Source: Anaerolineae bacterium
GTDB lineage: Bacteria; Chloroflexota; Anaerolineae; B4-G1; DUEL01
Assembly (NCBI GenBank): GCA_016931695.1
Contig: JAFGEI010000025.1
Coordinates: 7,266 to 71,265, forward strand
Length of the DNA: 64,000 nt
Reading direction: 5' to 3'
Shown: positions 13,048-59,981 of the stretch, piece by piece
Layout: each line of letters begins with the position of its first letter
Numbering within the stretch: position 1 is the stretch's first letter
Program-made: the position numbers and the translations under genes
The notes under the pieces: generated by a model
The model's input: the letters and a program-made list of their open reading frames with translations, nothing else
Told to the model about the DNA's origin: nothing
Databases searched by the model: none

Positions 13048-13129
13048 CTCATCACCTCGAGGGACAATCACTGCCTATCCCAAAGGTGTCTGGCACCTCT
13101 GGGCTTCCAATGAGCCATCGTCGCAGCAG

Positions 13130-16100
13130 TTACCTGCCTGCTGCGCTGCTTGCCCGGACCAGGGGCAGGAAAACCCGCCACGGCTCCAAGTTGATCCACG
13201 CTGCTCGCTCCCACGCCCCCCCAGCCCCGTCGTCGAGAAAAGCGACGCTGTAGAGCGGGGGATGGAGCGGCGCGCGGGGCAGGGTCAACTGGTAGGTGAC
13301 GGTTACCCGTTTCCCGACCGCCAGGGGCCCGCTCCAGCAGACTGCTCCTGGCAGGGGCTCTGCTGTCCCTCCTCCCAGCCAGGACAGGGTGTCCGTCAGC
13401 AAGATTGATTCGCCCGGCAACGAGATCACCGCCGTCGCCGACAGCGCGGCGCTCAAGCCGGCGTTCACCGCCTGCAGCGTGCAGGTGACCGTCCCACCGG
13501 GGCGGGCTGGCGAAGGGCTGCAGCCCAACCGCGACGGCGCCAGGTCCGGCGCGCCGACCCGCACCGCGGCCGCGCGCTGGAAGTGGATTCGCTGCTCCTC
13601 GATGCCCAGCGCGGCGACGTTGACGATGGGCGTGGCAGGGTCCAGCCCTTCCGCCACGGTGACGCAATAAGTTGCCGCCAGGGATTCTCCGGCAGCGAGC
13701 CCGCCCGACCAGGAAACCCGGCGCGTCGCCGGGTCGTAATTCAGCGGCGGGCCCAGGCTGCCGGGAACGAGGGCCAGGCTGAGCGGGATGGTGTTGGAAA
13801 GCGATGCCGTGATCGCCTCCGGCCCGTCGTTCGACAGGCGCAGGCTGTAGGTCAGCCCGCTTCCCGCAGCGACGACGGCGCGGTCGGCGGCAAAGGTCGA
13901 ACCGCCCATCCAGGACAGCCATCCCGTCACCTGGGACACGAGCTGCGGGCGCGCCTCCCGCGGCAGGGCTTCGAAGGGGAAGGGGAAAAAAACCGCCGCC
14001 TGCTGCCCCGCTCGCCGCGCCAGGCCCAGCCCGTGCCGCCGTTCGTCCCGCAGGAGGACGGCGGTGCCCGGCGTCGGCTCCACGCCGTCTGACCAGTTCG
14101 GGTAGGGATAATCCAGGAGCAAGTCCCCGTCGATGCCGACGACGGTCTCTTGCGGCGTCCTGCGCACCAGCGTCGGCGTCACGCCCTCGGTATACGTCAG
14201 CACGCCCAGGAATTCTTGGCCGAAGGGATCGAGGCCGTGCTCGTAGAGAAAATCCTGCGCCGAGAGAAAGAGCCTCCCCCCGCTCTCCAGGTAGGCCTGC
14301 AGGGTCGCCTCCTCGTCGGCGGTGATCGGCTGGTACCAGTCGTAGCCGGTCCACCAGACCACGACCGGGTACCAGCGCAGCACGTCGAGCGGCGGGCTGT
14401 GATCGCGGGAAGAGCCGAGGGCGGGGTGGGTCTGCCACAGGTCGTAGGGCAGGCCGGCCTCCTTTGCTGCCACCTGGTAGACCTTTTTCTGCTCGTACCA
14501 GCGGTCGTCGTCCACCAGCAGGATCGGGGCCGGCACCTTGGAGGTCAGCACCGCCGTCTGGCTGAGCGTGGGAGAGAGGGAGGATTGGGCGGTCAGGGTG
14601 ATCACGTCCAGGTCATTCCAGCCGGCGGTGATGGGCAGGGTGACGCTGACGACGACCGTACCAGAAGTGCAGGGCTCCAGGGTCAGGACGGCGGTGCTGA
14701 GCTGGGTGGGCCACGCATCGCCCGCCACGGCCAGGTGGATCGCATCGACCGGGCCGCCCTGGCCGACGTGCCGCAGCCGCAGGGCGTGGGTGACGACGGT
14801 CCCTGCTGCGCCGACCCGCGTCTGGGCCGGCGGCGTCATCTCCAGGCCGGCGGTGAGCGGGGCAGAGACCAGCCAGTCCAGGGCCCGCCCCATCACCGCG
14901 CGGCGGGCGCCCCGGTCGTCGATGCCCTCGAAGCCAAAGGAGAGGTAGACGACGCGATAGTCGAGACAGGTCCCGACCCGCACGCCGCCGAGGCCGTTTC
15001 CACGGTAGGCCAGCACTGGCGCGGCGGCGTCCGGGTCGGCCACGGCGACCACGTCGGGGAAGTGCTGGTTGTCGGCCCCGCCGGGGCCGGTGATGGTGAT
15101 GGCGATGCCGGCCATGATCTCGCCCGGCAGCCCCTCCAGGGTCCAGACGTTGCTGTTGTCCGCCTCCCAGGAGCATTTCAAATAGGCGCGGTAGTAGGGG
15201 GAAAAAGACCATCCGCCGTCCAGCAGGCCGACGTCCTGCCCGCTGAGCAACAACCGGCCTCCCCCGTCGAGGTAGCCGGTCACGGCGTCCGCCGCGCCGA
15301 TGAACCCCGGCGCGTCCCAGGGGGCGGACCAGACGACGGCGTCGTAGCGCAGCAGGTCCGCCGCGCCGGGCAGGTCCCCCGGCAGGCGGCGGATGGGCCA
15401 CTCGTCGTAGGCATAGGCCAGGTCGTCCAGCGCCGCGCGGTAGTAGGCGGCCTGGCTTTCGTAATACCAGCCGCCGCTGTCGACCAGGAGGAGGGTCGGG
15501 GCGGGGGGAAGGGCCAGGTCGATCACGGTTGTTTCCCCGGCTGTGACGACCGCCGTGGCAGTGACGACCCGGTAGCCCAGGCGCCGCGCCTGCACGGTAT
15601 AGACGCCGGCGGGCGGGGTAAAGGTGTAGGTCGCGCCGGTCGTTTCCAGGGGGGTGCCGAGCAGGGTGACGGTCGCGCTGAGCGGAGCGCCGCTGTCGGC
15701 GGCGGTGACGGCGCCGTGCAGGACGCCGCTCGGCAGGGGGGTCAGAAAGACGTTCTCCACCGTGGTCGCCCCGCTGATGACCTGAACGCCCCAGCAGGTC
15801 TCGGGTTGGTAGCCAAAGGCGGAAACGGCCAGGTCGTAGACGTCCGGGGCCAGCGCCAGCCGGTAGCCGCCCGCGTCGTCGGTGTGGGTCGTTCCGCCGC
15901 CCCCGCCGCCGTGCGGCGAGGCGGCGACCGTCGCCCCGCCAATGGGGGAGCCGCCGACCTGGCGCACCGTCCCGCTGACGTAGCCGGGCTGGGCCAGGGC
16001 GGCGACGGCAGCCAGGGCGTCGATGCGCCCCCAGCCGCTGTCGTTGTTGGGCACCACGTCGGTCAGGGGGACGGCGGTGCGGGTGATGATGGAGAGGGTG

Positions 16101-17416
16101 CGCGAGACCCCCAGCGTCGGGCTGACGGAGCGGAGCAATGCCGCCAGGCCGGTGACGTGGGGCGCCGCCATCGACGTGCCGTTGGCGGAGCCATAGACGC
16201 CGCCGGGCAGGCTGGAGACGACGTGCACCCCCGGCGCGACGATGTGGGGGCGAACCTGGCCCCACGGCGAAGGGCCGCGGCTGGAAAAGCTCGCCACCTC
16301 GTCGTACTCGTCGCTGGCCCCCACGGCGACCGACTCTGGCAGCGAGGCTGGCGAACCGACGCTGCCTTCCCCCGCGCCGTAATTGCCGCTGGCAAAGACG
16401 GGGAGCACCCCAATCGCTCGCAGTGCCTGCAGGTCAGGCTGAAAAGTCGTCAGTGCGCTGTTGGGACTGGACCAGGAGCAATTGACCACGTCGGGCGCGC
16501 GCTCGGGGTCGCCGCCCGGGGCCAGCAGCCACTGGAAACCGGCGTGAATCCAGGAATCGTAGGCATACCCTGCCCCGTTAAACACCTTGACCCCGATCCA
16601 CCGGGCACCGGGAGCGACGCCAATCCCTTCCCGGCCCACGGCGCTGCCCATCGTGTGTGTCCCGTGTCCATGATCGTCAATGGGGTAGAGCGAGCCATTG
16701 ATCGCGTCGTACCAGTTGCCGATGTGGTTGGGCGGGCCGTGGGGCGAAAAGCCGCGGTAGTTGGCCTGCAGGGCAGGGTGAAGCCAGTCGACGCCGGTGT
16801 CCATCCCCGCCACCACCGCGTTGGTGCCCGAAATGTGCAGGGCGGCCCAGACCTCGGGCGCGCCGATGCGGGCCACGTTCCACTCGGGGACGGCAAGCGG
16901 ACGGGCGGCTGCGCCCGGCTGGGGCGGGTCGGCAATCCACTGGCGGTAATGATCCAGCCGCACCAGGGCGACGTCGGGATGCGCGGCCAACAGCCGGACG
17001 GCGGCCGGGCGCGCCCGCACGGCAATCGCGTTGACGATCCAAAAAGGCGTGTAGGATTCGACCGCGCCCGCGGCCTGTTGCTGTTCCAGGCAAGCCCGCA
17101 ACGGCGCCTGGCTCTGTTCCGCCAGGGACTGCAGGCCGGCGACGAGGTGCGCGCGCACCTCTCCCGCCGCCGGAGCGGGCTGTTGGCGCAAAAAGAAAAT
17201 GACCGGCAGCATCTCCCCCGGCGCGGCGCCCGCCAGTGCGCGGAGCAGGGCGGGTTCGAGCGGCGCGGCGGGCAGCGGGCTGGTTGGCCGGGGCAGGGAC
17301 CCGCGCGCCATGGGAGAGGGAAGGGCCTTGGTGGGCGGCAGCCCTTCCGCTCCGGCGGGCAGCAGCAGGAGCGTGACCAGAACGACGGCCAAAAACCACG
17401 GCGCTATTTTCCGCAT
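13130..17416 (-). CDS. Very large secreted subtilisin-like (S8) serine protease with long C-terminal beta-rich domains
   Basis: The catalytic triad motifs are AGMDTGVD (Asp), HGHGTHTMGS (His) and GTSMAAPHVTGLAAL (Ser). The signal peptide is MRKIAPWFLAVVLVTLLLLPAGA. About 1000 aa follow the protease domain with Ig-like, CarboxypepD_reg-like and Gly-rich segments. Confidence 0.9.
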   Translation of the reverse strand: MRKIAPWFLAVVLVTLLLLPAGAEGLPPTKALPSPMARGSLPRPTSPLPAAPLEPALLRALAGAAPGEMLPVIFFLRQQPAPAAGEVRAHLVAGLQSLAEQSQAPLRACLEQQQAAGAVESYTPFWIVNAIAVRARPAAVRLLAAHPDVALVRLDHYRQWIADPPQPGAAARPLAVPEWNVARIGAPEVWAALHISGTNAVVAGMDTGVDWLHPALQANYRGFSPHGPPNHIGNWYDAINGSLYPIDDHGHGTHTMGSAVGREGIGVAPGARWIGVKVFNGAGYAYDSWIHAGFQWLLAPGGDPERAPDVVNCSWSSPNSALTTFQPDLQALRAIGVLPVFASGNYGAGEGSVGSPASLPESVAVGASDEYDEVASFSSRGPSPWGQVRPHIVAPGVHVVSSLPGGVYGSANGTSMAAPHVTGLAALLRSVSPTLGVSRTLSIITRTAVPLTDVVPNNDSGWGRIDALAAVAALAQPGYVSGTVRQVGGSPIGGATVAASPHGGGGGGTTHTDDAGGYRLALAPDVYDLAVSAFGYQPETCWGVQVISGATTVENVFLTPLPSGVLHGAVTAADSGAPLSATVTLLGTPLETTGATYTFTPPAGVYTVQARRLGYRVVTATAVVTAGETTVIDLALPPAPTLLLVDSGGWYYESQAAYYRAALDDLAYAYDEWPIRRLPGDLPGAADLLRYDAVVWSAPWDAPGFIGAADAVTGYLDGGGRLLLSGQDVGLLDGGWSFSPYYRAYLKCSWEADNSNVWTLEGLPGEIMAGIAITITGPGGADNQHFPDVVAVADPDAAAPVLAYRGNGLGGVRVGTCLDYRVVYLSFGFEGIDDRGARRAVMGRALDWLVSAPLTAGLEMTPPAQTRVGAAGTVVTHALRLRHVGQGGPVDAIHLAVAGDAWPTQLSTAVLTLEPCTSGTVVVSVTLPITAGWNDLDVITLTAQSSLSPTLSQTAVLTSKVPAPILLVDDDRWYEQKKVYQVAAKEAGLPYDLWQTHPALGSSRDHSPPLDVLRWYPVVVWWTGYDWYQPITADEEATLQAYLESGGRLFLSAQDFLYEHGLDPFGQEFLGVLTYTEGVTPTLVRRTPQETVVGIDGDLLLDYPYPNWSDGVEPTPGTAVLLRDERRHGLGLARRAGQQAAVFFPFPFEALPREARPQLVSQVTGWLSWMGGSTFAADRAVVAAGSGLTYSLRLSNDGPEAITASLSNTIPLSLALVPGSLGPPLNYDPATRRVSWSGGLAAGESLAATYCVTVAEGLDPATPIVNVAALGIEEQRIHFQRAAAVRVGAPDLAPSRLGCSPSPARPGGTVTCTLQAVNAGLSAALSATAVISLPGESILLTDTLSWLGGGTAEPLPGAVCWSGPLAVGKRVTVTYQLTLPRAPLHPPLYSVAFLDDGAGGAWERAAWINLEPWRVFLPLVRASSAAGR

Positions 17417-17422
17417 ACGTAC

Positions 17423-17431
17423 ATTATAGCA
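17423..17431 (-). promoter_or_regulatory. Extended -10 (TGcTATAAT on minus strand), 6 nt upstream of the S8 protease ATG (leaderless)
   Basis: Reverse complement of 17414-17431 reads TGCTATAATGTACGTATG. Confidence 0.5.
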
Positions 17432-17483
17432 CAGCGCGGCCCCCTGCCGCAACCAAACCGGGTTGCTGTTTTTCCCCCCTTTC

Positions 17484-17512
17484 TTGCCTTTCCGAGTCGT
17501 TGCGGGTACAAT
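17484..17512 (+). promoter_or_regulatory. Promoter for the molybdoenzyme operon: -35 TTGCCT (17484-17489), 17-bp spacer, -10 TACAAT (17507-17512)
   Basis: A roughly 105-nt leader follows, with inverted repeat GAGTCGTT...AACGACTC around the -10. Confidence 0.45.
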
Positions 17513-17622
17513 GGGAACGACTCAGCCAGCCGCCCTTTGAACGCCTTCCCACGCCGGAGATGGGAGAGCGGACGTGGGATAGCCGGCTGAATCACGGCAG
17601 GCTCAGTTGAAGGAGAAAGCCC

Positions 17623-18528
17623 ATGCTGGCAAGACCCGGTCTGGTATCGTTCGATTATGTACGAGCGCGCACCCCTGGAGAGGTCGTTCAACTCCTGGCC
17701 GAGCACGGCGCCGACGCGCGGTTGATGATGGGCGGCACCGACCTGCTGGTGCGCATCCGCGACGGCGCCGTCCGCCCGCGGCTGGTCGTCGATCTCAAGC
17801 ATCTGCCCGGCATGCGGGACATCTTGTACCAGCAGCAAGCCGGCTTGACCGTCGGCGCCGCGGTGACGATGAACCAGCTCGCCCGCCACCCGGCCGTGGT
17901 TGCCCACTACCCGCTCCTGGCACAGGCGGCAAATTCCGTCGCCTCGTACCCACTGCGCAACCGCGCCACCATCGGCGGCAACCTGTGCAACGCCTCCCCC
18001 TGCGCCGACACCGCCCCCCCCAGCTACGTCCTCGCGGGGCGAATCGTCGTCCACGGCAGCGCCGGCGAGCAAGAGGTGGCGATTGCCGACTTTTTCCGCG
18101 GTCCCGGCCAGACGGTGCTGCAACCCGGCCAATTTGTGACCGCCATCCGCTTTCCACCGTCCCCCGCTGCGGCATCCGGTCGCTACCTCAAGCTGGGGCG
18201 CAACAAAGCCGGCGACCTGGCCATCGTCAGCGTAGCCGTCCTCGGCTTCCCCGACGCGAGTGCCCCTTCCGGCTACCGCTTCCGCATCGCCCTGGGCGCT
18301 GTCGCGCCGGTCGTGCTGCGGGTGCCGGCGGCGGAGGAGTGGCTGGCCCACCATCCCCCCGGCGCAGAGACCTTTGCCCGCGCCGCCGACTTGGCCGCCG
18401 CGGCCGCTTCGCCCATCGATGACGTGCGCGCCAGCGCGGACTATCGGCGGGCGATGGTGCGGACGTTGACGCGGCGGGGGTTGAACGCCGTTGCCGACAC
18501 AATCGCCGCGCCGACCGGGTCGGCGTGA
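17623..18528 (+). CDS. Xanthine dehydrogenase family FAD-binding subunit (CoxM/XdhB-like)
   Basis: The family motif LMMGGTDLLVRIRDGAVRPRLVVDL...LARHPAV...NRATIGGNLCNASP is present. RBS GAAGGAG. Confidence 0.9.
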   Translation: MLARPGLVSFDYVRARTPGEVVQLLAEHGADARLMMGGTDLLVRIRDGAVRPRLVVDLKHLPGMRDILYQQQAGLTVGAAVTMNQLARHPAVVAHYPLLAQAANSVASYPLRNRATIGGNLCNASPCADTAPPSYVLAGRIVVHGSAGEQEVAIADFFRGPGQTVLQPGQFVTAIRFPPSPAAASGRYLKLGRNKAGDLAIVSVAVLGFPDASAPSGYRFRIALGAVAPVVLRVPAAEEWLAHHPPGAETFARAADLAAAAASPIDDVRASADYRRAMVRTLTRRGLNAVADTIAAPTGSA

Positions 18529-18544
18529 GAAGGGAGAAGGCAAA

Positions 18545-19018
18545 ATGGCCAACCATGCCATCACCGTCACCGTAAACGGCGTCAAAGAACGCGTCGACGT
18601 GCCCTCGAACATGACCCTGTTGGAAATGCTGCGCCAGCGCCTGGCCCTGACCGGGGCCAAGAACGGCTGCGGCGCGGGCGAGTGCGGCGCCTGCACCGTC
18701 CTGCTGGACGGCGAACCGGTCAACGCCTGCATGGTGCTGGCCGCAGAAGTGGACGGGGCCGCGGTCGTCACCGTCGAAGGGCTGGCTCAGGACGGCCAGT
18801 TGAGCGCCGTCCAGCAGGCGTTCGTCGAGGAAGGGGGCGTCCAGTGCGGCTTTTGCACGCCCGGCATGCTCATCTCGGCGCACGCCCTGCTGCAGCGCAA
18901 CCCGCGTCCCACCGAAGACGAGATCCGCGAGGCGCTGGTCGGCAACCTCTGCCGCTGTACCGGCTACACCCGCATCGTCCGCGCGGTGCAAAAAGCGGCC
19001 CAAGGAGGGGTAGAATGA
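18545..19018 (+). CDS. (2Fe-2S)-binding small subunit (CoxS-like)
   Basis: [11 protein letters not shown] and QCGFCTPGM...CRCTGY carry the two [2Fe-2S] cysteine clusters. Confidence 0.9.
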
Positions 19019-21345
19019 GCGAACAGACGACCAACCCCGTCGGCAAGAGCGTGCCCCGCGTGGACGCTTACGACAAGGTCACCGGCGCGGCGGCGTTTAC
19101 CGATGACCTGCAGTTTGGCCCTGGGCTGCTCTTTGGACGCGCGGTGCGCAGTCCATATCCCCACGCGCTGATCAAGCGCCTGGACGTGGGGCCGGCCCTG
19201 GAGCTGCGCGGCGTCAAGGCGGTGGTCACCGGCGCGGATACCCCCGGCTTTATCGGCCTCTACCTCAAGGACCGGCACATCTTTTGCACCGACCGGGTGC
19301 GCTACGTTGGGGACCCGGTGGCCGGGGTCGTCGCCGCCAGCGAAGAGATCGCCGAGGAAGCGGCCCGGCGGGTCGTGGTCGAGTACGAGGAACTGCCGGC
19401 CGTCCTGGACCCGCTGCAGGCGATCCAGCCCGACGCCCCGCTGCTGCACCCCGATCTCGGCTCGTACGACGTGGTGCCCTTCATCTTTCCCCAACCGGGC
19501 ACGAACATATCGAACGTCTTTCGCGTGCGCAAGGGCGACGTGGAGGGCGCGTGGGCGCAGTGCGACGCGGTCGTCGCGGACACCTACCGCGTCCCCCACA
19601 TTCAGCACGTGCCGATCGAACCCCACGTCGCCATTGCCCGCTGGGACCTGTCGGGGGAGGTGACGCTGTGGAGCAGCACCCAGTCCCCCTTTGCCCAGCG
19701 CGACCTGATCGCGCACACGTTGGGCATCTCCCAGGGCGACATGCGGGTGATCGGCAATTACATCGGCGGCGGATTCGGCTCCAAGGCCGGCGTGTCGATG
19801 GAGGCGTTGGCCGTGGCGATGGCGCGCCAGGTGCCGGGCCGCCCGGTCAAGGTGCGCATGACCCGCGAGGAAGAGTTCTACTGCTGCTTTGTGCGCCAGG
19901 GCCTGGTGGCCCGGGTCAAGATCGGCGGCACGAAAGAGGGGCGGATCCTGGCGCTGCAGGTGGAGTATTATTGGGACGCCGGGGCCTATACCGAGTACGG
20001 GGTCAACATCACCCGCGCCGCCGGCTATTCCTCCACCGGCCCCTACAACATTCCCAACGTCAAGACCGACTCTTATTGTCTCTACACCAACCATCCGGTC
20101 GGCGGGCCGATGCGCGGGTTCGGCATGCCGGAAATTCACTGGAGCATCGAGCAGTCGGTCGACCAGCTGGCGGAGGCGCTGGCGATCGATCCCGTCGCCT
20201 TCCGCCAGCGCAACTGTGTCCAGGGCGGCGACGTCATCGTGACCGGGATGACCATGCACCCCCACGGCCTCTCCGAGTGCATCGAGCGGGTCGCGCAGCG
20301 CATCGACTGGGGCAAAAAGGAGGTGCCCTCAGCCCCCCACAAGCGGCGCGGCAAGGGCGTCGCCGCCTGCTGGAAGGCGCCGGCGATGCCGCCCAACCCC
20401 GGCTCCGAGGCCTGGGTGCGCTTTAACGAGGACGCCACCGTCAGCGTCGGCGTCGGGGGGCAGGAATTGGGCCAGGGGGCGTTCACCGTCGCCGCCCAGG
20501 TCGCCGCCGAGGCGCTGGGCATCCCCTACGAATGGGTGCGCATCGCCAACCCCGTCGACACCAAGTACAGCCCCTACGAATGGCAGACCGTCGCCAGCCG
20601 CATCACCTGGTCGATGGGCAACGCGGTCAAGGCCGCCGCCGAGGACGCCCGGCGGCAGATTCTCGAGATCGTCGCCCGCTACTGGGATCAGGACCCCGGC
20701 GACCTGGACATCCGCGGCGGCGAGGTGGTCTCGTCCAAGAGCGAGCAGTCCCTCTCGCTGCGCAACCTGGTCGTCTACGGCCTGCCGCTGCCGGACGACC
20801 AGGGCTGGATCGGCGGCCCGATCATTGGCCGCGGCAAGTTTATGCCCACCTACGTCACTGGCCTCGACCCGGAGACGGGCCAGGGAGCGCGGGCGGTGGT
20901 CCATTACACCACCGGCGCCCAGGCAGCCGAGGTGGAGGTCGACCTGGAGACCGGCCGCGTCGAGCTGCTGTGCATCGCCGCGGCCTACGACGTGGGCAAA
21001 GCGATCAACCCCGAGCAGGTCCACGCCCAGTTGGAGGGCGGCGTGGTGCAGGGAGCCAGCTCGGCACTGCTGGAGGCGCTGACGTTCCAGGACGGGCGCC
21101 CGGTCAACGCCTCCTTCGTCGACTACCGGATCATGACGGCGGTCGACGCGCCGCAGCGGATCCTGACCGATTTCGTGGAGGTGCCGCAGGACGATGGGCC
21201 GTGGGGCGCGCGCGGCGTCGGCGAGCACCCGATGATCGCCACCGCGCCGGCCATCGCCAACGCCATCTATGACGCCCTGGGCATCCGCTTCAACGACCTG
21301 CCGCTGACGGCGGAAAAGATCTATTTGGCGCTGCAAGGGGCGTAG
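19015..21345 (+). CDS. Molybdopterin-binding large subunit of a xanthine dehydrogenase family oxidoreductase
   Basis: ATG 19015 overlaps the upstream stop (ATGA). Family hallmarks are GNYIGGGFGSKAGVS and the C-terminal region. The form I CODH motif AYRCSFR is absent. Confidence 0.9.
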   Translation: MSEQTTNPVGKSVPRVDAYDKVTGAAAFTDDLQFGPGLLFGRAVRSPYPHALIKRLDVGPALELRGVKAVVTGADTPGFIGLYLKDRHIFCTDRVRYVGDPVAGVVAASEEIAEEAARRVVVEYEELPAVLDPLQAIQPDAPLLHPDLGSYDVVPFIFPQPGTNISNVFRVRKGDVEGAWAQCDAVVADTYRVPHIQHVPIEPHVAIARWDLSGEVTLWSSTQSPFAQRDLIAHTLGISQGDMRVIGNYIGGGFGSKAGVSMEALAVAMARQVPGRPVKVRMTREEEFYCCFVRQGLVARVKIGGTKEGRILALQVEYYWDAGAYTEYGVNITRAAGYSSTGPYNIPNVKTDSYCLYTNHPVGGPMRGFGMPEIHWSIEQSVDQLAEALAIDPVAFRQRNCVQGGDVIVTGMTMHPHGLSECIERVAQRIDWGKKEVPSAPHKRRGKGVAACWKAPAMPPNPGSEAWVRFNEDATVSVGVGGQELGQGAFTVAAQVAAEALGIPYEWVRIANPVDTKYSPYEWQTVASRITWSMGNAVKAAAEDARRQILEIVARYWDQDPGDLDIRGGEVVSSKSEQSLSLRNLVVYGLPLPDDQGWIGGPIIGRGKFMPTYVTGLDPETGQGARAVVHYTTGAQAAEVEVDLETGRVELLCIAAAYDVGKAINPEQVHAQLEGGVVQGASSALLEALTFQDGRPVNASFVDYRIMTAVDAPQRILTDFVEVPQDDGPWGARGVGEHPMIATAPAIANAIYDALGIRFNDLPLTAEKIYLALQGA

Positions 21346-27289: not shown

Positions 27290-27333
27290 TGAGCCCATCA
27301 ACCCGATCGCCAAATCCCGATTCGGGACGAACT

Positions 27334-27361
27334 TGACATTCTCGCTAGAGCCACTACAATA
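27334..27361 (+). promoter_or_regulatory. Strong promoter: -35 TTGACA (27334-27339), 16-bp spacer, -10 TACAAT (27356-27361)
   Basis: Perfect -35. About 225 nt of structured leader lie before the ssb-like ATG (27587). Confidence 0.5.
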
Positions 27362-27586
27362 ACCGTCAGACGTCACGGCTCAGGCTGCTTGCCCACGGCA
27401 AAAAGACATCCAGGGGCGGCTGGCCGAGCCGCTGCGAACAAGCAACATAGCTCACATCACAGCCCAGGTCCAGTGAATCGGATACGTTGCACACGCGCCG
27501 GCCCCAGGGCCGGCGCGCGATCTTGAGGAGGTCAATGATGCTGACAATGTACACCACCTGCTCATTGGAATGGCGGGAGGCGGGAA

Positions 27587-27922
27587 ATGCTGCAGAATGA
27601 TTGCCGCTTCATTGGGAATTTAACCCACCCGCCGCACTTTCGCCGCGTTGGACAGTCCCAACTGCCCTTTTTGCGCCTCTATGTTGCGGTCGACAACGGC
27701 CAGGATGGCCCGGCCTACGTGCGGGTTGTCGCTTACGGCGAGATCGCCTTGCTGACCCACCCCTATCTTCAGACCGGCTCCAAGGTCATGGTCCAGGCCC
27801 GCTACCGCCAGCGCAAGCGGCACGACAACGGGGAAACGGTGCACGAGTTTGTAGCCCAGCACATTGTCTTTATCGACAAGATCGACTGGGAGCGCGGCGA
27901 CGCGGCGCGGCGCCAGGCGTAG
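27587..27922 (+). CDS. Short single-stranded DNA-binding (SSB-like OB-fold) protein lacking the acidic C-terminal tail
   Basis: NDCRFIGNLTHPPHFRRVGQSQLPFLRLYVAVDNG...VRVVAYGEIA...GSKVMVQARYRQRKRHDNGETVHEFVAQHIVF is an SSB OB-fold pattern. RBS GGGAGG. It ends without the DDDIPF-type tail. Confidence 0.7.
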   Translation: MLQNDCRFIGNLTHPPHFRRVGQSQLPFLRLYVAVDNGQDGPAYVRVVAYGEIALLTHPYLQTGSKVMVQARYRQRKRHDNGETVHEFVAQHIVFIDKIDWERGDAARRQA

Positions 27923-28014
27923 CCGCCTCTTTTCTGGGCTGTCGTTCCCCTCGCCGGCGGCAGGAGAGGGGCTCTCGGCCGTTGGAGCAGTGGCAAGGCA
28001 GTTACAATGAAATG

Positions 28015-28023
28015 TGGTATAAT
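28015..28023 (+). promoter_or_regulatory. Extended -10 TGgTATAAT 10 nt upstream of secA ATG (near-leaderless)
   Basis: No SD lies between 28024 and 28033. The homology-supported start MAQGIKGLLTRFVGDSN is at 28034. Confidence 0.45.
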
Positions 28024-28033
28024 GGCGCCACGT

Positions 28034-31333
<3,300 letters not shown>

Positions 31334-31358
31334 CAGGCGAGAAAGTAGGAGGAAAGTA

Positions 31359-31724
31359 ATGAACGACGTGACGAGGCGCTTGATGACCGATATGGACCCT
31401 GATCTGCTGACGTTTCTGCACAGCAAGGTCACTTCCTTCGTCAAGTGGGACCTGATCCGCTTCTTTCACGAAAACCCGCATACCGCCGACACGGCGGAGA
31501 ACATTGCGCGTTATGCAGGCCGCAACGTCGAGATGACCGAAGCCGAGTTGGTCGAGTTGACCGAGTTGGGGGTTCTGGTGAAAAATCAACTGGGATCGAT
31601 GGTCGTTTACTCGCTGTCCAATGACCCAGGGATCAGGGATCTGATTCGGCGCTTTGCCGAGGCGTCGGACGACCGCGAATTCCGGCGCAAAGCGATCTAT
31701 CACATCATTCGTGGTATGCGTTAG
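31359..31724 (+). CDS. Hypothetical small protein with probable winged-helix segment
   Basis: ATG 31359 follows RBS GTAGGAGGAAAG. The segment TAENIARYAGRNVEMTEAELVELTELGVL looks like an HTH. It is immediately upstream of the KaiC-like ATPase. Confidence 0.55.
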   Translation: MNDVTRRLMTDMDPDLLTFLHSKVTSFVKWDLIRFFHENPHTADTAENIARYAGRNVEMTEAELVELTELGVLVKNQLGSMVVYSLSNDPGIRDLIRRFAEASDDREFRRKAIYHIIRGMR

Positions 31725-31753
31725 GATATGTGGTACGGCGAAAGGAGAGAGGA

Positions 31754-32515
31754 ATGGATCGCGTAACGACAGGCATAGCCGGTCTGGACGACATGCTGCA
31801 GGGGGGATTTGTGCCCAATACGGCGATTTTGGTCGAAGGAGCGCCAGGCACCGGCAAGACCACGTTCGGTATGCAGTTTATCCATCATGGCATCGCCCAG
31901 TGTGACGAACCGGGCATCATTTTGACCTTTGAGCAGTTTCCCCGCCAGTACTATCGGGATGCGGCAAATTTCGGCTGGGATTTTCGCCGCTGGGAGGCGG
32001 AAGGCAAATTGCGCATCATGATGACCAGCCCCGAAGTCTCCCAGGCTTTTTTCCAGGAGGCCGGGGGGCAGATTGAACAGCTGACGCGGGAGGTGGGCGC
32101 TCGCCGCATCCTCGTCGATAGCATCTCCCACTTTGAACGCCTGGCGGCAGACCCGGTCCATCTGCGGCAGCTGGTCTATAGCTTTATCAACGGCTTGAAG
32201 CGGGAGGGGCTGACGGCAGTGCTGACGCGGGAGAATGTGGCCTTGCTGGGAGAGGCGGAAGGGCAGGACGAGAGTGTGCCCTTTATCGTCGATACCTACA
32301 TCCTGCTGCGCTATGTCGAGATGGACAGCGCGATTCGCAAGGCGCTGCTGGTGCTCAAAATGCGGGGCAGCTATCACGACAAGGACATCCGCCGCTTTAC
32401 AGTAACCTCCAAGGGAATCGAGGTTCATTCCAAGTTCGAGGGGCAGGAGGGGATCTTGAGCGGCAGTCCGCGCCGCATGGCGGAATCCTTCATCGAGGCC
32501 TTTGTGCGACGGTAG
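31754..32515 (+). CDS. Single-domain KaiC/RecA-superfamily ATPase
   Basis: Walker A GAPGTGKTTFGMQF and Walker B RILVDSIS. Resembles KaiC, RadA and ArlH-type modules. RBS AAGGAGAGAGG. Confidence 0.8.
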   Translation: MDRVTTGIAGLDDMLQGGFVPNTAILVEGAPGTGKTTFGMQFIHHGIAQCDEPGIILTFEQFPRQYYRDAANFGWDFRRWEAEGKLRIMMTSPEVSQAFFQEAGGQIEQLTREVGARRILVDSISHFERLAADPVHLRQLVYSFINGLKREGLTAVLTRENVALLGEAEGQDESVPFIVDTYILLRYVEMDSAIRKALLVLKMRGSYHDKDIRRFTVTSKGIEVHSKFEGQEGILSGSPRRMAESFIEAFVRR

Positions 32516-32523
32516 AAACGCGG

Positions 32524-32814
32524 ATGGAGATTGCAGTACGTATCACGGCGCTGATTACCTGGGCGGGTATTGCTTTCCTGCTCTTTATGCTCTGGCGCAT
32601 TGCTCGTTTTTACGAGATATCGTCAGGAAAGCGGGCCTACTCTTTCTTGTTTCTGCCCCCGCTCGTGTTCATGCCGGCCGGATCGTTGTGCTATGTTCTC
32701 CTGAATGTCGATTTTGTGGGCAGCCCGCTGGCCGATCTCTTGCTGTTATTGGGTGGGGTTCTGCTGGCGGTCGCCACCTTTCTCTTGGGCCAGATTATGG
32801 TGGGAGAACGATGA
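32524..32814 (+). CDS. Small membrane protein (3 TM), paralog A
   Basis: Hydrophobic 96-aa ORF ending ...GQIMVGER. The stop overlaps the next start (ATGA). Confidence 0.5.
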   Translation: MEIAVRITALITWAGIAFLLFMLWRIARFYEISSGKRAYSFLFLPPLVFMPAGSLCYVLLNVDFVGSPLADLLLLLGGVLLAVATFLLGQIMVGER

Positions 32815-33167
32815 ACAGCTGGCAGGTGCCGATCGAGATCATCACCACGCCGCTGGGACCCGCGAGCCTGGCCGCATTGATCGCCACTCTCTTTCTGTAC
32901 GCAAATCTCAGCCGCCGGCTGGGCGCAGTGACCAAAATGGCGCCATACTACAAGTGGTTCTATGTCGGTATGGCGTTCATCACCGCTGCCTTTGGCGTTT
33001 CTGTGCTGCGAAGTGCCGCTTTTCTTTCCTGCCACAGTGAACAGAATTTCCTGACCACGCCGGCTTTTGGACTGCTCTTTTATCATATCCCCTTGCTACT
33101 GGGAACAGTGGCTAGCCTGATTGCTGCCTGGCGGTACTGGGCGTGGCTGTTAGTTGGCGAGAGATAA
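32811..33167 (+). CDS. Small membrane protein (3-4 TM), paralog B
   Basis: ATG 32811. Ends ...AWLLVGER, the same C-terminal VGER as paralog A. The TAA stop overlaps the add ATG (TAATG). Confidence 0.5.
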   Translation: MNSWQVPIEIITTPLGPASLAALIATLFLYANLSRRLGAVTKMAPYYKWFYVGMAFITAAFGVSVLRSAAFLSCHSEQNFLTTPAFGLLFYHIPLLLGTVASLIAAWRYWAWLLVGER

Positions 33168-34240
33168 TGACCCACTTGGATCAAGTTAGAGAGCAGTTAA
33201 GCGCTGGCGACCTGGCAAAAGTGCGGAGTTTTTTCCATCACATGCCCAAGATCGATCTTCACCGGCACCTGGAAGGCTCCCTTCGCTTGCAAACCCTGAC
33301 CGAGATCGCCGTGGAGCACGGGATCGACCTGCCTGCCTATGGCATCGAGGAACTTCGCCCCTACGTCCAGGTCACCGGCGACAAGTACGACTTTCACGAA
33401 TTTCTGGCCAAATTTCGCTTGCTGCGCCGCTTCTACCGCAGCCAGGAGGCGGTCGAGCGGGTGGCCTACGAAGCGGTCGCCGACGCGGCCCAGGACAACA
33501 TCCGCTACCTGGAGCTGCGCTTTAACCCGGTGGCGCTTTCCCGTGCCCAAAACTTTTCTCTGCTCCAGGTGACAGAGTGGGTCAGCCGCGCGATTGCCCA
33601 GGCGCAAAAGGATCACAGCATCACGGCGCGGCTGATTCTGCAGATCGGCCGAGAAGAGAGCCTGCGAATTGCCGAAGAGATCGTCGACATCGGCATATCT
33701 CATCAGGATGTGGGCGTGGTCGGGATCGACCTGGCGGGGGACGAGATCAACTATCCTCCGCACCGTTTCGCTGCCCTCTTTTACAAAGCCCGGCAAGAAG
33801 GGCTGGGGATCACCGTTCACGCCGGCGAGGCGGGCGGCGCGGAGAACGTCCAGGCGGCGATTCACCTGCTCCACGCACAACGCATCGGCCACGGCGTGCG
33901 GGTGGTGGAGGACTCGAATATCGTCCACTTTGTCCGCAACAACGGCGTGACCCTCGAGGTCTGTCCCACCAGCAATCTCCAGACCGGCGTGGTGCTCAGC
34001 CTCAGTCACCACCCGCTGCTCGACCTGCTGGCGCTGGGAGTGCTGGTGACCATCAACACCGACGACCCCAGCATATCCGACACGACCCTCACCGATGAGT
34101 ACATGGTCGCCTTGCTCGCCATTGGACTGGAGGTCGACCATGTCCGCACGTCGGTCAAGAATTCCATCAACGCATCCTTCTTGCCGCAGCAGGAACGGCG
34201 ACTGCTTGGGGAGCAATTCCGGGAGTGGGATTCGGAATAG
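33167..34240 (+). CDS. add: Adenosine deaminase
   Basis: IDLHRHLEGS and TINTDDP are adenosine deaminase signatures. Size about 357 aa. Confidence 0.88.
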   Translation: MTHLDQVREQLSAGDLAKVRSFFHHMPKIDLHRHLEGSLRLQTLTEIAVEHGIDLPAYGIEELRPYVQVTGDKYDFHEFLAKFRLLRRFYRSQEAVERVAYEAVADAAQDNIRYLELRFNPVALSRAQNFSLLQVTEWVSRAIAQAQKDHSITARLILQIGREESLRIAEEIVDIGISHQDVGVVGIDLAGDEINYPPHRFAALFYKARQEGLGITVHAGEAGGAENVQAAIHLLHAQRIGHGVRVVEDSNIVHFVRNNGVTLEVCPTSNLQTGVVLSLSHHPLLDLLALGVLVTINTDDPSISDTTLTDEYMVALLAIGLEVDHVRTSVKNSINASFLPQQERRLLGEQFREWDSE

Positions 34241-34279
34241 GGAGAAACCACCCCGCCTGCCAGCCAGGGAGGAGGAGAG

Positions 34280-34310
34280 GTTGGGGTCTTGCCCCAACTT
34301 TCCCTTTTCC
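34280..34310 (+). terminator. Rho-independent terminator after add
   Basis: GTTGGGG tcttg CCCCAAC followed by TTTCCCTTTTCC. Confidence 0.6.
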
Positions 34311-34380
34311 TGCCGTGGGAGGGCAGCCGGATTTGTCAGGGTGAGCGATCCGTTCCCCGCTTCCGGCGATGAGGAGAGAT

Positions 34381-36075
34381 ATGAGCCAGGTGCTTTGCGA
34401 TCAAATTGCCGCGCTGGTCCTTCAGGCCCTCGATGCGGCCCAGTCAGCGGGGGATCTGCCCCCCTTCCCCCTGCCGGACCCGGCGGTCGAGCGCGGTCGT
34501 CACGAGCAGCACGGGGATTATGCCTCGTCGGTTTGCCTCAAGCTGGCCCGCGAGGCGCGGATGAACCCGCTCGAAATTGCCCAGCGGGCGATTGCCCATC
34601 TGTCTCCTGCCCCCTTTGTCGGCCGCGCTGAAGCGGTCGCGCCGGGTTATATCAATGTCTGGTTGGACGAGGACTGGCTGACCAGCCAGGTCGAACGGAT
34701 CCTGGCCGCTGGCAGCGACTTTGGCCGGCTGGATAAGGGCGGCGGGCAGCGGGTCCAGGTCGAATTCGTCAGCGCCAATCCCACCGGCCCGTTGACCATC
34801 GGCTCTACCCGCAACGCCGTCTTGGGCGACGCCCTGGCGTCGGTTCTGGAGGCGGCGGGCTGCCAGGTGGAGCGTGAGTATTACGTGAATGACGCCGGTT
34901 CCCAGATCCGCCGCTTTGGCGAGAGCGTCCTGGCTCGCTACGCCCAGGCGCTGGGGGAGGCGGCGCCTTTTCCTGAAGATGGCTACCACGGCAGCTATGT
35001 ACTCGGCCTCGGGCGCGAGCTGGCGGAGGAGGCGGGCCGCCGCTACCTGGAAATGGAACGCGTTGCAGCAGTCCACGCCGTCGCGGCCTGGGCGATTGGG
35101 CAAATACTGATCGGGGTGCGCCGCGACCTGGCCGAACTGGGTGTCGAGTTCGACACCTGGCGCCACGAGCAATCCTTCCGCGCGGAAGGGCTGCTCGACC
35201 AGGCCCTGACCAGGCTGAGAGCGGGCGGCTATGTCGTCGAGTATGATGGCGCGACGTGGTTCCGCCACCCCGACCTGGAGAAGGACGTGGTGCTGATCCG
35301 CTCTCCCCAGGTGATCCCCGAACCGGCCGAGCGGCCAACTTACCTGGCTTCCGACGCCGCTTACCTGCTGGACAAGCTGGTGAAAAGGGGCTTTGACCGG
35401 GCGATCTATGTCTGGGGCGCCGACCACCACGGCGACGTGCCCCGGCTCAAGGCGGCGGCCCAGGCCCTGGGCCTGGACCCCGAGCGGGCGGTGCTGGTTA
35501 TCTACCAGATGGTCAACCTCTGGCAGGGCGGCGAGGAGGTGCGCATGTCCAAGCGCACCGGCGATTTTGTCACCCTGCGCGAGCTGTTGGAACAGGTCGG
35601 CCCGGACCCCATCCGCTTTATGCTCCTGTCCCGCAGCGCCGATTCGACCATCGACTTTGACCTCGACCTGGCCGTGGAGCAGTCGGACCGCAACCCGGTC
35701 TATTACGTCCAGTACGCCCACGCCCGCATCGCCAGCATCCTCCGCCACGCCCAGGAGGAGGGCTGGGCCGTGGACGCGCCGGCCGATCTGGCCCTGCTGC
35801 ACCACCCCAGCGAACTGGGTCTCGTCCGCAAGATGTTGGAGCTGCCCGAGGTGATCGACCTGGCGGCGAGCCAGCTGAGCCCGCACTACCTGCCCTTTTA
35901 CGCCCAAGAGCTGGCGGCGGTCTTTCACGCCTTTTACCGCGACTGCCGCGTCGTCTCCTCCGAGCCCGGCGACGAGGGCCTGACCCGCGCCCGCCTGCGC
36001 CTGGTCCGGGCCGCCCAGGGGGTCCTGGCCCGCGTGCTGGCGCTGATGGGGATGAGCGCGCCGGAGCGGATGTAG
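34381..36075 (+). CDS. argS: Arginine--tRNA ligase
   Basis: The class I motif region [16 protein letters not shown] and the KMSK-like RMSKRTGDF are present. RBS GAGGAGAG precedes ATG 34381. Confidence 0.93.
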
Positions 36076-36196
36076 GCCTGTCTCGTACACAGGGAAAAGT
36101 CGCCTGCGCCCTCTTTGCCCTGGGTTACCTGGTCCGGAGGGGGGTTGTAACCCCCGACACACGCGCGTACATTTTCTTTCGGAGGCACATGTCGTC

Positions 36197-36757
36197 ATGG
36201 GATTGAAACCCGATCACTGGATCCGCGAAATGGCTGTCGAACAAAAGATGATCGAGCCCTTTGTCGATCACCAGGTGCGCGACGGCCTCATATCCTTTGG
36301 CCTCTCGTCGTATGGTTATGACATCCGCGTGGCCGAGGATTTCAAGATTTTCACCCCCGGTTTGGGCGACCTGACCGTCGTCGACCCCAAGCGTTTCGAC
36401 ACCCGCTCGATGGTCGATTATACCGGCGACGTCTGCGTCATCCCGCCCAACTCGTTCGCCCTGGCGCGGTCGGTAGAGTATTTTTGCGTCCCCCGCAACG
36501 TCCTCTGCATCTGCCTGGGCAAGTCGACCTATGCCCGTTGCGGCATCATCGTCAACATCACGCCTTTCGAGCCGGAATGGCAGGGCTTTGTCACGCTCGA
36601 AATCAGCAACACCACGCCGCTGCCGGCCAAGATCTATGCCGGGGAGGGCATCGCCCAGGTCCTCTTTTTCGAAGGGGACGAGGCGTGCACGGTCTCTTAC
36701 GCCGACAAAAAGGGCAAGTACCAGCACCAGCAAGCGATCGTCCTGCCGCGTCTGTGA
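36197..36757 (+). CDS. dcd: dCTP deaminase
   Basis: Collinear with the dCTP deaminase family ([30 protein letters not shown]). Confidence 0.93.
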
Positions 36758-36803
36758 TGTCACTGGCTGCCAGTGGCGCCGGTTCAGACGGAAGAGAACT
36801 GCC

Positions 36804-37898
36804 GTGACCAAGACACCGCTCTACCAACAGATTGCCGAGGCAATTCGCCGCGATATGCTCGACGGCACACTTTGCTCTGGGGACCCGCTGCCATCTGTGC
36901 GCGAAATGGCGGCCCGTTGGAATTGCACGCCGGGGACCGTTCAGCGTGCGTACAAGGAACTGGCGAGCCAGGGGCTGCTGGTCAGCCGCCCGGGCCAGGG
37001 CACGCACGTGCTGGAGGCAATCGCCAGGCAGGAAGGGGAATCGATCCGCCGCGCCAACCTGGTCCACCAGGCCGAGTCGTTCCTGTTGGGCGTGCTGACC
37101 GCGGGATACAGCCCGGCGGAGATCGAGCAGGCGGTGCGGCTGGCCCTGGATCGCTGGCGGGTTCTCGTTCAGCAGCCGCCCAGTTCGCCGCCGCAGAGCG
37201 TGCGCTTTGTCGGCAGCCACGACCACGCCCTCTCGCTCATCGCCGCCCGTTTCGGCAGCATTGCCCCCGGCTATACCGTCGACGTCAAGTTTGCCGGCAG
37301 CCTCGGGGGGCTGATCGCCCTGGCCCGCAAAGAAGCCGACGTCGCCGGAGGGCACCTGTGGGACGAAGAGAGCGATACTTACAACGAGCCCTTTGTCCGG
37401 CGGCTGCTGCCGGGCTGCCGGGTTGCCCTGCTGACGCTGGCGCACCGCCGGCTGGGCTTGATCACCGCGCCCGGAAATCCCGCCCGGCTGGTTACGCTCG
37501 CGGACGTGGCGTGTGCGGGCCTCCGCTTCGTCAACCGCCAGCCAGGCGCCGGCACCCGGGTCTGGCTCGATGTTCACCTGCGCCGCCAGGGCGTCGCGGC
37601 AGAAGAACTGTCGGGCTATGAGCACCAGGTATCGACCCATTCCGAGGTTGCCCTGGAGATCGCTGAGGGTCGGGCTGACGTCGGGCTGGGGATCGAGGCG
37701 GCGGCCCTGGCCTATGATTTGGGGTTTGTCCCGCTGGTCATGGAGCGCTACGACCTGATGATCCCGGCCGCGGCGTGGTCGTCCCCACCCATCCGGGCGC
37801 TTTCCCACTGGCTCTCCACCGCCGAGGCCCGCTCGGCGATCGAGGAATTGGGGGGCTATGACACCTCCGCAACCGGAACAGTGGCCTGGGTCGAGTGA
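36804..37898 (+). CDS. GntR-type HTH regulator fused to a PBP-like (ModA-like) substrate-binding domain
   Basis: GTG 36804. LYQQIAEAIRRDMLDGTLCSGDPLPSVREMAARWNCTPGTVQRAYKELASQGLL is a GntR HTH. The C-terminal roughly 250 aa resemble periplasmic-binding-protein type II folds. Confidence 0.75.
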   Translation: MTKTPLYQQIAEAIRRDMLDGTLCSGDPLPSVREMAARWNCTPGTVQRAYKELASQGLLVSRPGQGTHVLEAIARQEGESIRRANLVHQAESFLLGVLTAGYSPAEIEQAVRLALDRWRVLVQQPPSSPPQSVRFVGSHDHALSLIAARFGSIAPGYTVDVKFAGSLGGLIALARKEADVAGGHLWDEESDTYNEPFVRRLLPGCRVALLTLAHRRLGLITAPGNPARLVTLADVACAGLRFVNRQPGAGTRVWLDVHLRRQGVAAEELSGYEHQVSTHSEVALEIAEGRADVGLGIEAAALAYDLGFVPLVMERYDLMIPAAAWSSPPIRALSHWLSTAEARSAIEELGGYDTSATGTVAWVE

Positions 37899-59121: not shown

Positions 59122-59981
59122 TCATCCTGTCGACCGGCTCCATCTATACCTACGGCACCGCCCGCGCCCTGGCCCTGGCGGCCGAGACCGGCTACGATGG
59201 CGTGGAAGTGACCATCGACGACCGCTGGGATACCCGCCAGCCGGCCTATCTGCGGCGTCTTGCCGAGACCTATGGCACCCCCATCGCCGCCTTGCACAGC
59301 CCCTTTGTCGCCACGGTGAGCGGCTGGCCGGCCTGCCAGCTCGAGCGGCTGAAGCGCTCGGTTGCGCTGGCCCAGGAACTGGGCACGCCGGTAGTCGTCA
59401 CCCACCTGCCCTTTCGCTTTTATGGCCTGCTGGGGCATTTGCACGGCTTGGGCTACCGCCGCTTTGTTCTGCCGCTGCCGCTGCCCTGGCTGCGGCGGGA
59501 ACCTTACTACTATGCCCTGCGCGATGGCCAGCTGCGGCAGCTGGAGGAGGCGGCTGGCGTGATCATCGCCGTGGAGAACATGCCCGCTTTCCCGCTGCTG
59601 GGCCGGCCGGTCGACATCCACTGGTTCAACCGCCTGGACGAGCTGGCCCGCTTTCCCCACCTCACCCTCGACACCACCCACCTGGGAACGTGGGGCCTGG
59701 ACCCGCTGCGCGTCTACGAACGGCTGCGGGGGCGGGTAGCCCACGTCCATCTATCCAACTTTGACGGGCGGGAGCACCGCTCTCCCCCCGATGGCGACCT
59801 GCCGCTGGCGGCGCTGCTGCGGCGCATGGCGGGCAGCGGCTACCGGGGGGCGATCAGTGTCGAGACTCACCCCGACGCGCTGGGGGCTGAAGACGAGGTG
59901 CAATGCCGGAGCGCGCTGCGGCGGGCGCTGCTTTTCTGCCGCGAGAATTTTGTCGAGGAGGAAGCCGATGTCAAACAATAG
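59118..59981 (+). CDS. Sugar phosphate isomerase/epimerase (xylose isomerase-like TIM barrel)
   Basis: ATG 59118 overlaps the upstream stop (ATGA). GYDGVEV, VVVTHL, VENMP and HVHLSNFDG match the TIM-barrel AP-endonuclease/xylose-isomerase-like family. Confidence 0.8.
   Translation: MIILSTGSIYTYGTARALALAAETGYDGVEVTIDDRWDTRQPAYLRRLAETYGTPIAALHSPFVATVSGWPACQLERLKRSVALAQELGTPVVVTHLPFRFYGLLGHLHGLGYRRFVLPLPLPWLRREPYYYALRDGQLRQLEEAAGVIIAVENMPAFPLLGRPVDIHWFNRLDELARFPHLTLDTTHLGTWGLDPLRVYERLRGRVAHVHLSNFDGREHRSPPDGDLPLAALLRRMAGSGYRGAISVETHPDALGAEDEVQCRSALRRALLFCRENFVEEEADVKQ

Follow-up and report, generated by a model that had tools for sequence, protein, structure and literature searches.

What does a KaiC-type ATPase do when it is encoded between a small winged helix-turn-helix (wHTH) protein and two small membrane proteins, in a cluster that runs directly into an adenosine deaminase gene? 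The question is raised by a locus in contig JAFGEI010000025.1 of an Anaerolineae bacterium (NCBI GenBank assembly GCA_016931695.1), of which we analysed a stretch of 64,000 nucleotides (nt), referred to below as the window. KaiC-family ATPases beyond the cyanobacterial clock are abundant and barely characterized, and the routes by which they receive input and deliver output are an open question. From gene order, profile searches and naturally occurring variants, we cautiously favour the view that the wHTH gene, the ATPase gene and the two membrane protein genes (mem1 and mem2) specify a membrane-anchored KaiC/kinase signalling module.

Layout of the locus

The genes of the proposed module, followed by their immediate neighbours, are:

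31359-31724, + strand: wHTH gene, encoding an ArsR-like winged-helix protein of 121 aa
31754-32515, + strand: KaiC gene, encoding a KaiC-type single-domain (CII-like) RecA-fold ATPase of 253 aa, counted from the ATG
32524-32814, + strand: mem1, encoding a predicted membrane protein of 96 aa with three transmembrane (TM) helices, ending MVGER
32811-33167, + strand: mem2, encoding a predicted 3-TM membrane protein of 118 aa, ending LLVGER
33167-34240, + strand: add, encoding a canonical adenosine deaminase of 357 aa
28007-31333, + strand: secA, a 1108-aa open reading frame (ORF) that ends 25 nt before the wHTH gene
34277-34301, + strand: terminator-like hairpin after add, with an 11-bp stem followed by CCCTTTTCCT

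A first-pass annotation of this DNA had placed five ORFs on the + strand, from the wHTH gene to add, and all five were found in those positions. Two of its figures needed correction: the ATPase has 253 aa, not 254, and its gene begins 29 nt, not 30 nt, after the wHTH gene. An in-frame GTG at 31730 offers an alternative start. The remaining junctions had been described accurately, with mem1 starting 8 nt after the KaiC stop codon, mem2 overlapping the end of mem1 (ATGA) and add overlapping the end of mem2 (TAATG). A protein identical to the wHTH protein carries the locus tag JW900_02560 and comes from an Anaerolineae metagenome-assembled genome (MAG).

Conservation of the gene cluster across the Anaerolineae

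The locus scan, which used one genome per species, yielded 70 loci with genes for relatives of the ATPase. It detects fairly close relatives only, so the distributions given here are lower bounds, and nearly all of the sequences derive from MAGs. The order secA, wHTH, KaiC, mem1, mem2 was repeated in about 53 of the 70 loci, as expected of the non-standard module proposed in the first-pass annotation. Carriers of this order belonged to the Anaerolineae, Thermoflexia/Thermoflexales and Ardenticatenales, together with one Chloroflexia-labelled MAG, and their KaiC proteins were 44-81% identical to that of the window. The survey thus found the ATPase strongly linked to the membrane proteins, rather than dispersed without them.

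About 50 other genomes preserve the arrangement of the four module genes, in both order and direction, with protein identities of 27-81%, which shows that these are real genes and not chance ORFs. Among the related loci, the median gap is 24 nt between the wHTH and KaiC genes, 10 nt between KaiC and mem1, and -4 nt between mem1 and mem2; no gap separates the last two genes in 37 of 50 loci, where they abut or, mostly through ATGA, overlap. This spacing suggests that the module is a conserved unit and is probably co-translated. When mem2 was searched against plasmids no match was returned, and the KaiC matches on plasmids were at most 41.5% identical and belonged to generic two-domain KaiC proteins accompanied by a kinase. 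A mobile element was ruled out on these grounds, since mem2 is not on plasmids and the plasmid KaiC matches are distant and generic. On balance we lean towards a signalling module that is vertically inherited across the class Anaerolineae.

The first-pass annotation had missed secA as a constant neighbour. In 50 of the 51 related loci where the distance could be measured, this gene precedes the wHTH gene by 5-607 nt, and Pfam SecA domains were recorded in L079 and L083. We regard secA as a constant upstream neighbour and at most a putative part of the module. The main rival to a KaiC/kinase signalling module, one that we consider unlikely, follows from this arrangement: the module would be tied to SecA, co-expressed with secA and involved in monitoring or assisting translocation or membrane-protein biogenesis, for example under secretion stress. 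Consistent with this, secA is found directly upstream on the same strand even where SecA identity falls to 45% and in a clade that lacks KaiC. Furthermore, the 25 nt gap in the window contains no terminator-like site, and a strong promoter-like site (27333-27360) lies ahead of an SSB-like ORF and secA. Both kinds of call, promoter and terminator, are no more than matches to a consensus. However, the distance from secA to the wHTH gene varies over the whole range given above, and no secA hit was seen directly upstream in the examined Nitrososphaerota loci or in the distant bacterial wHTH-KaiC relatives described below. As secA is universal, its co-occurrence with the module is not informative. 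In addition, three loci carry unrelated small genes in the interval from secA to the wHTH gene (L014:180-668, L015:4075-4620 and L050:3997-4620). Judging by motifs, one of these inserted genes is presumably DUF2442-like, and a second, in L050, presumably DUF4160-like.

A histidine kinase gene, natural variants and the position of add

The preferred reading, a KaiC/kinase signalling module, takes its second half from a gene that the first-pass annotation did not report. Directly after mem2, about 28 related loci encode a soluble PAS/GAF-HisKA-HATPase histidine kinase of 583 to >1792 aa. The gap between mem2 and the kinase gene is usually <60 nt and is sometimes replaced by a 4-nt overlap, and add then follows the kinase gene. 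Distant two-domain KaiC genes are likewise followed by kinases. Both the Chloroflexia-labelled MAG and other phyla have the kinase, which is patchily distributed within the Anaerolineae. At the upper extreme of size, a giant kinase of >1792 aa with many GAF repeats is encoded at L083:5336-10339 and overlaps the mem2 stop by 4 nt. No ortholog of the module kinase was found in the 64-kb window. Only a 273-aa stand-alone GAF protein (window 59761-60582), which is not an ortholog, matched the sensor region of the kinase there.

A reciprocal search from the mem2 side revealed loci in which KaiC itself is missing. In L079, L081 and L082, three independent metagenome contigs, the order is secA, wHTH, mem1, mem2 and kinase, with no KaiC gene, and add follows the kinase in the two of these contigs that reach that far. 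L080 and L083 carry the full set, and L041 is without the wHTH gene. The add gene of L079 appears frameshifted and the secA of L081 was called as two ORFs; both are probably assembly errors. This sample is small and stems from searches with KaiC or mem2; within it, the membrane pair is what stays constant, and KaiC, the kinase and the wHTH protein are each dispensable somewhere.

The first-pass annotation had considered the tight coupling of the cluster to add unusual and potentially meaningful, a view that did not hold. In loci without the kinase the gap between mem2 and add ranges from 1 to 174 nt, and the 1-nt overlap (TAATG) occurs only in the genome of the window; elsewhere the kinase intervenes, as described above. 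Downstream of the module, add is absent in L017, L024 and L037, where the module is retained, and in L069 a 262-aa ORF splits the gene while the upstream module is intact. The splitting ORF (L069:6522-8398) is rich in Cys-x-x-Cys motifs and is possibly a transposase. We judge add to be a syntenic neighbour and not part of the module. We infer that its stop-start coupling to mem2 may be a by-product of kinase loss that carries no functional link, with the direction of the loss following from parsimony only.

It is very unlikely, in our estimation, that add is nevertheless a working part of the system, either in a nucleotide or adenosine pathway or in a RADAR- or Cad1-like defence in which the ATPase would control the deaminase. 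The stop-start overlap in the window could be read in this way, as could the fact that most related loci have add downstream, either next to mem2 or beyond the kinase, and the overlap of the kinase and add genes in L080 and L081. The PADLOC model CARF_ADA also matches add (E 2e-56), via common deaminase homology. However, add passes the housekeeping equivalog TIGR01430 (304.6 bits against a cutoff of 216.55) and matches PF00962 (E 2.3e-92), as expected of the canonical enzyme that the first-pass annotation had recognized. The other four genes gave no PADLOC system protein above noise, mem2 is not found on plasmids, and the module persists where add is absent or split. The context is one of core housekeeping genes, namely infC-rpmI-rplT (assigned by eye), secA, argS and dcd.

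Defence, including RADAR, which the first-pass annotation had itself set aside, was rejected as a candidate. The RdrB score of add was 21.9 bits against a cutoff of 800 (PADLOC E 0.027), there was no RdrA hit, and the expected CARF_ADA homology was otherwise accompanied by noise only (PDC-M05A, E 2.4e-4 for the wHTH protein; mad8, E 6e-4 for KaiC).

The membrane proteins mem1 and mem2

We compiled 50 orthologs of mem1 and 54 of mem2. By the positive-inside rule, each protein is predicted to have three hydrophobic helices with the N-terminus outside and the C-terminus inside the cell. The conserved segments are a basic cytoplasmic loop after TM1 in each protein, (W)RIARFYExxSGxxxY in mem1 and LSRRLGxVTKMxPYYRxF in mem2, and the C-terminus AWRYWxWL of mem2.

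The first-pass annotation had proposed that the two proteins are tandem paralogs because both end in VGER. This argument failed, as the VGER ending was found only in close relatives for both proteins, but the paralogy itself is supported by profile evidence and by natural fusions. Aligned with hhalign, the mem1 and mem2 profiles matched in register with a probability of 91% (E 1e-6), whereas in a control comparison the small archaeal TM partner described below matched neither (probability <3%, in fact 2% or less). When a mem2 hidden Markov model (HMM) was run on all 5898 six-frame ORFs from the loci, the 54 true mem2 hits came first, and 39 of the next 47 hits were mem1 ORFs (best E 9e-6); three of the remaining hits sit in loci where tblastn had overlooked mem1. 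Natural mem1-mem2 fusions occur in P0257, P0302, P0304 and L064. Together, these observations support the classification of mem1 and mem2 as true paralogs.

An AlphaFold2 (AF2) model of one fusion showed 3+3 long helices (pLDDT 77.9, pTM 0.54); as the pTM is only 0.54, we left the packing of the helices uninterpreted. A fold search with this model against the PDB found no relative (best E 0.66, TM <0.3). Neither mem1 nor mem2 matched anything above noise in Pfam and NCBIfam, and a scan of 41 members of the mem2 family gave scattered weak hits only, such as DUF2101 in 13 of the 41 (best E 0.017). The mem2 family comprises 245 representative clusters among 1.84 billion proteins.

The winged-helix protein

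The wHTH protein has a winged-helix fold with the helix order of ArsR, in agreement with the first-pass description of a wHTH-like protein. It matched no ArsR-type Pfam or NCBIfam model, and its only hits were below threshold (DUF7342, 17.3 against 31.6 bits; HVO_A0114, 16.3 against 27.6 bits). Conservation is highest in a basic C-terminal helix, RQFRVKAIYHIIRGMR, which is specific to the family.

A search with an HMM of this wHTH family placed a member immediately ahead of the KaiC gene in 11 of the 15 distant loci. The hosts were Armatimonadota, Bryobacterales, Vicinamibacterales, Gemmataceae, a Woeseiaceae MAG and an archaeon, and the KaiC genes of the distant bacterial relatives were mostly two-domain (440-870 aa). 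Overall, five bacterial phyla, Armatimonadota, Acidobacteriota and Planctomycetota among them, and the Nitrososphaerota have a member of the family encoded directly ahead of a related KaiC gene. The six Nitrososphaerota loci encode, in order, a soluble protein of ~90-115 aa, a wHTH protein, a single-domain KaiC (45% identity) and a TM protein of ~110-115 aa, and one genome contains two copies of this arrangement. Homology of the archaeal wHTH proteins was detected with HMM E values of 1e-9 to 1e-15. The archaeal soluble protein (L071:3387-3701, L073:3355-3702, L076:1879-2199 and L078:1940-2212) matched nothing in Pfam and has no equivalent in the bacterial module. These archaeal and other-phylum relatives were absent from the first-pass annotation. 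They suggest that the wHTH protein is a family-specific partner of this KaiC clade, and that the wHTH-KaiC pair is old and widespread, with only the membrane partner appearing to vary by lineage.

The region upstream of the wHTH gene contains tandem heptamer repeats (GTCAGTG/GTCAGTC, e.g. GGTCAGTCGTCAGTGGTCAGTCGTCAGTG) in Thermoflexales-type loci, located just before the ribosome-binding site, within the last ~60 nt ahead of the start codon. They occur in L013, L016, L019, L050 and L062, and also in L009 and L012, and are absent from the window, where the corresponding stretch is the 3' end of secA. The repeats could be an operator or simple repeat DNA. Apart from this Thermoflexales-specific repeat, we found no operator upstream of the wHTH gene that is common to the whole class.

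The data on the membrane and wHTH proteins also bear on whether the genes are mere neighbours, without a common function, that have stayed together through slow genome rearrangement. Synteny is indeed wider than the module, as the whole block from secA to add is syntenic and argS and dcd join it in close relatives. Nevertheless, the 4-nt overlaps and ~10-nt gaps within the module persist at 27-60% protein identity while the flanking gaps vary, mem1-mem2 fusions exist, and wHTH and KaiC genes are again found paired in other phyla and in archaea, where the genomic surroundings are unrelated. Chance retention of this kind seems to us highly improbable.

The KaiC-type ATPase

The ATPase of the window matched PF06745 (KaiC) over residues 5-228 with 175.8 bits against a gathering cutoff of 26.6 (E 1.2e-51). 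Its closest PDB relatives are true KaiC proteins (E 2e-84), with the CII domain scoring slightly better than CI, and the alignment extends through the A-loop-like ILSGSPRR. The assignment to a single-domain KaiC-type ATPase made in the first-pass annotation was thus confirmed, and the motifs it had quoted, GAPGTGKTTFGMQF and RILVDSIS, are present. Across 55 orthologs, the Walker A motif (GAPGTGKT), E61, the Walker B aspartate (LVDS) and KxRGS (KMRGS) are invariant or nearly so, the residue following E61 is E or Q, and the C-terminal FxxAF is invariant. The positions equivalent to S431/T432 are P177/F178 in the window and A/P and F/Y in the orthologs, never Ser/Thr.

The ATPase missed the cutoffs of the clock KaiC equivalogs TIGR02655 (163.9 against 546.25 bits) and NF006799 (195.4 against 408), of ArlH (40.6 against 215) and FlaH (47.9 against 194), and of the archaeal KaiC subfamilies TIGR03880 (134.2 against 249.45), TIGR03877 (116 against 307.25) and TIGR03881 (95.2 against 247.8). 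The match to the GvpD P-loop was weak only (E 0.003). Between secA and argS, the only interval of the genome searched for them and one with all of its ORFs accounted for, there was no KaiB- or KaiA-like ORF. Published KaiC homologs of ~250 aa that lack KaiB and the phosphosites are mostly archaeal, with few bacterial examples (PMC5520375), and by its sequence the window ATPase fits this group of homologs without clock features.

A KaiC-based timer (hourglass or circadian oscillator) or an ArlH-type archaellum or pilus ATPase, which the circadian KaiC proteins among the best PDB relatives and the retained A-loop-like motif might suggest, is extremely improbable and largely refuted by these tests, given the single domain, the lack of a KaiB/KaiA ORF between secA and argS, the substituted phosphosites, scores far below the KaiC and ArlH cutoffs, and neighbours (secA, add, argS and dcd) that include no archaellum or pilus genes.

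Proposed mechanism

For a membrane-anchored KaiC/kinase signalling module, we propose the following model. The paralogs mem1 and mem2 would pair to form a six-helix membrane unit with the N-termini outside and the C-termini and basic loops in the cytoplasm, and this unit would act as a membrane sensor or anchor whose cytoplasmic face engages one or two transducers. The first transducer would be the single-domain KaiC-type ATPase, acting as a hexamer and as a nucleotide-driven switch, not a phospho-clock; the second, in many lineages, would be the soluble PAS/GAF histidine kinase. The wHTH protein may be the partner or output, either as an adaptor or as a transcription factor, the availability of which the membrane complex and the ATPase would control. 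In the lineage of the window, which is without the kinase gene, the housekeeping add gene would have come into stop-start overlap with mem2. The physical contacts, the membrane topology, the direction and nature of the signal and the output are only inferred in this model.

Several observations weigh against it. Neither a response regulator nor target genes could be identified. One clade does without KaiC, whose role may therefore be accessory. DNA binding by the wHTH protein is uncertain, as the family is mildly acidic (median pI 5.6) and the putative recognition helix has conserved glutamates. In mem1 and mem2 alike, short and variable periplasmic loops offer no obvious ligand site. The model leaves the neighbouring secA and the frequent neighbour add unexplained, other than by conserved synteny. 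Finally, most loci were found via KaiC, so the measured linkage is biased.

It is also conceivable, although we regard it as rather doubtful, that mem1/mem2 and the wHTH protein constitute an undescribed membrane-sensing pathway universal to the Anaerolineae, in which KaiC and/or the GAF kinase would be interchangeable and which would be co-expressed with SecA and report membrane or secretion state. The wHTH family would in addition serve as a KaiA/KaiB-independent output adaptor for the KaiC clade across phyla and Nitrososphaerota.

The module is a compact and conserved case of a KaiC-type ATPase whose membrane and winged-helix partners are defined and which is accompanied in many genomes by a kinase. 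The natural variants that lack KaiC, the kinase or the wHTH protein make its wiring experimentally tractable. The analysis also defines a new family of small membrane proteins and a wHTH family that follows a single KaiC clade in both bacteria and archaea. The practical consequence for annotation is that add should not be counted as part of the system.

Other features of the window

Downstream of add, the window contains argS and dcd. The hairpin after add was the top-ranked terminator-like site in 27300-37000 and marks a possible end of the transcription unit. The promoter-like site upstream of secA begins at 27333 and is near-consensus for sigma-70 (TTGACA, 16 nt, TACAAT; 11/12 matches); a 111-aa SSB-family ORF (PF00436, 38.5 bits) lies between it and secA (window 27333-27922). 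Rfam and tRNA scans of the window detected no RNA elements. The region 12000-20000 has a GC content of 0.69-0.715, compared with about 0.60-0.66 elsewhere, and encodes a 1440-aa minus-strand ORF (13130-17452) with a signal-peptide-like N-terminus.

Comparison with known systems

The closest parallel is with the archaeal KaiC-like ATPases, which, like the ATPase described here, consist of a single RecA/KaiC domain (~250-280 aa) and lack both KaiB and the phosphosites of the clock (PMC5520375). A role as signal-transduction hubs in archaea has been proposed for KaiC-like ATPases (Makarova, Galperin and Koonin 2017, cited in PMC5847659). In Haloferax, the KaiC-like CirA is linked to the regulator CsmR and post-translational modulation is proposed (PMC13286277). 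The likeness lies in a KaiC-family ATPase proposed to modulate a transcription regulator, whereas the cirA and csmR genes are apparently not adjacent, the regulator belongs to another family and there are no membrane partners.

The Nitrososphaerota modules share with the Anaerolineae module a homologous wHTH gene directly upstream and a small polytopic membrane protein directly downstream of an ATPase that is 45% identical. They differ in that the bacterial module is single-copy at a fixed core-genome position, whereas the archaeal one can be present in more than one copy per genome; in the extra soluble protein of ~90-115 aa encoded upstream; and in the membrane partner, which is not detectably related to the mem1/mem2 pair (hhalign 2% or less).

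GvpD with GvpE is a case similar to that of CirA and CsmR. Despite the shared helix order, the wHTH protein differs from ArsR/SmtB repressors, to which it is 10-20% identical without an ArsR Pfam match; its recognition helix is acidic, and the basic C-terminal helix RQFRVKAIYHIIRGMR is specific to its own family.

With the KaiC proteins of cyanobacteria and proteobacteria (SasA, CikA; KaiBC-kinase loci), the ATPase shares a CII-like domain with Walker A and B motifs, the catalytic Glu, the Arg finger and an A-loop-like motif, and many of its relatives also have a histidine kinase encoded beside KaiC. Those systems have two domains, KaiA/KaiB and S431/T432, whereas here there is one domain with A/P and F/Y at the corresponding positions, and the module has dedicated membrane proteins and a wHTH partner, with the kinase absent in the window.

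KaiC-family signalling ATPases with regulators and kinases are therefore already known in outline, and parts of what we describe may already be covered by the 2017 archaeal KaiC survey. What is new is the bacterial, class-wide, single-copy form of the system, the paralogous membrane pair without a known family or fold relative, and the wHTH family that tracks the KaiC clade.

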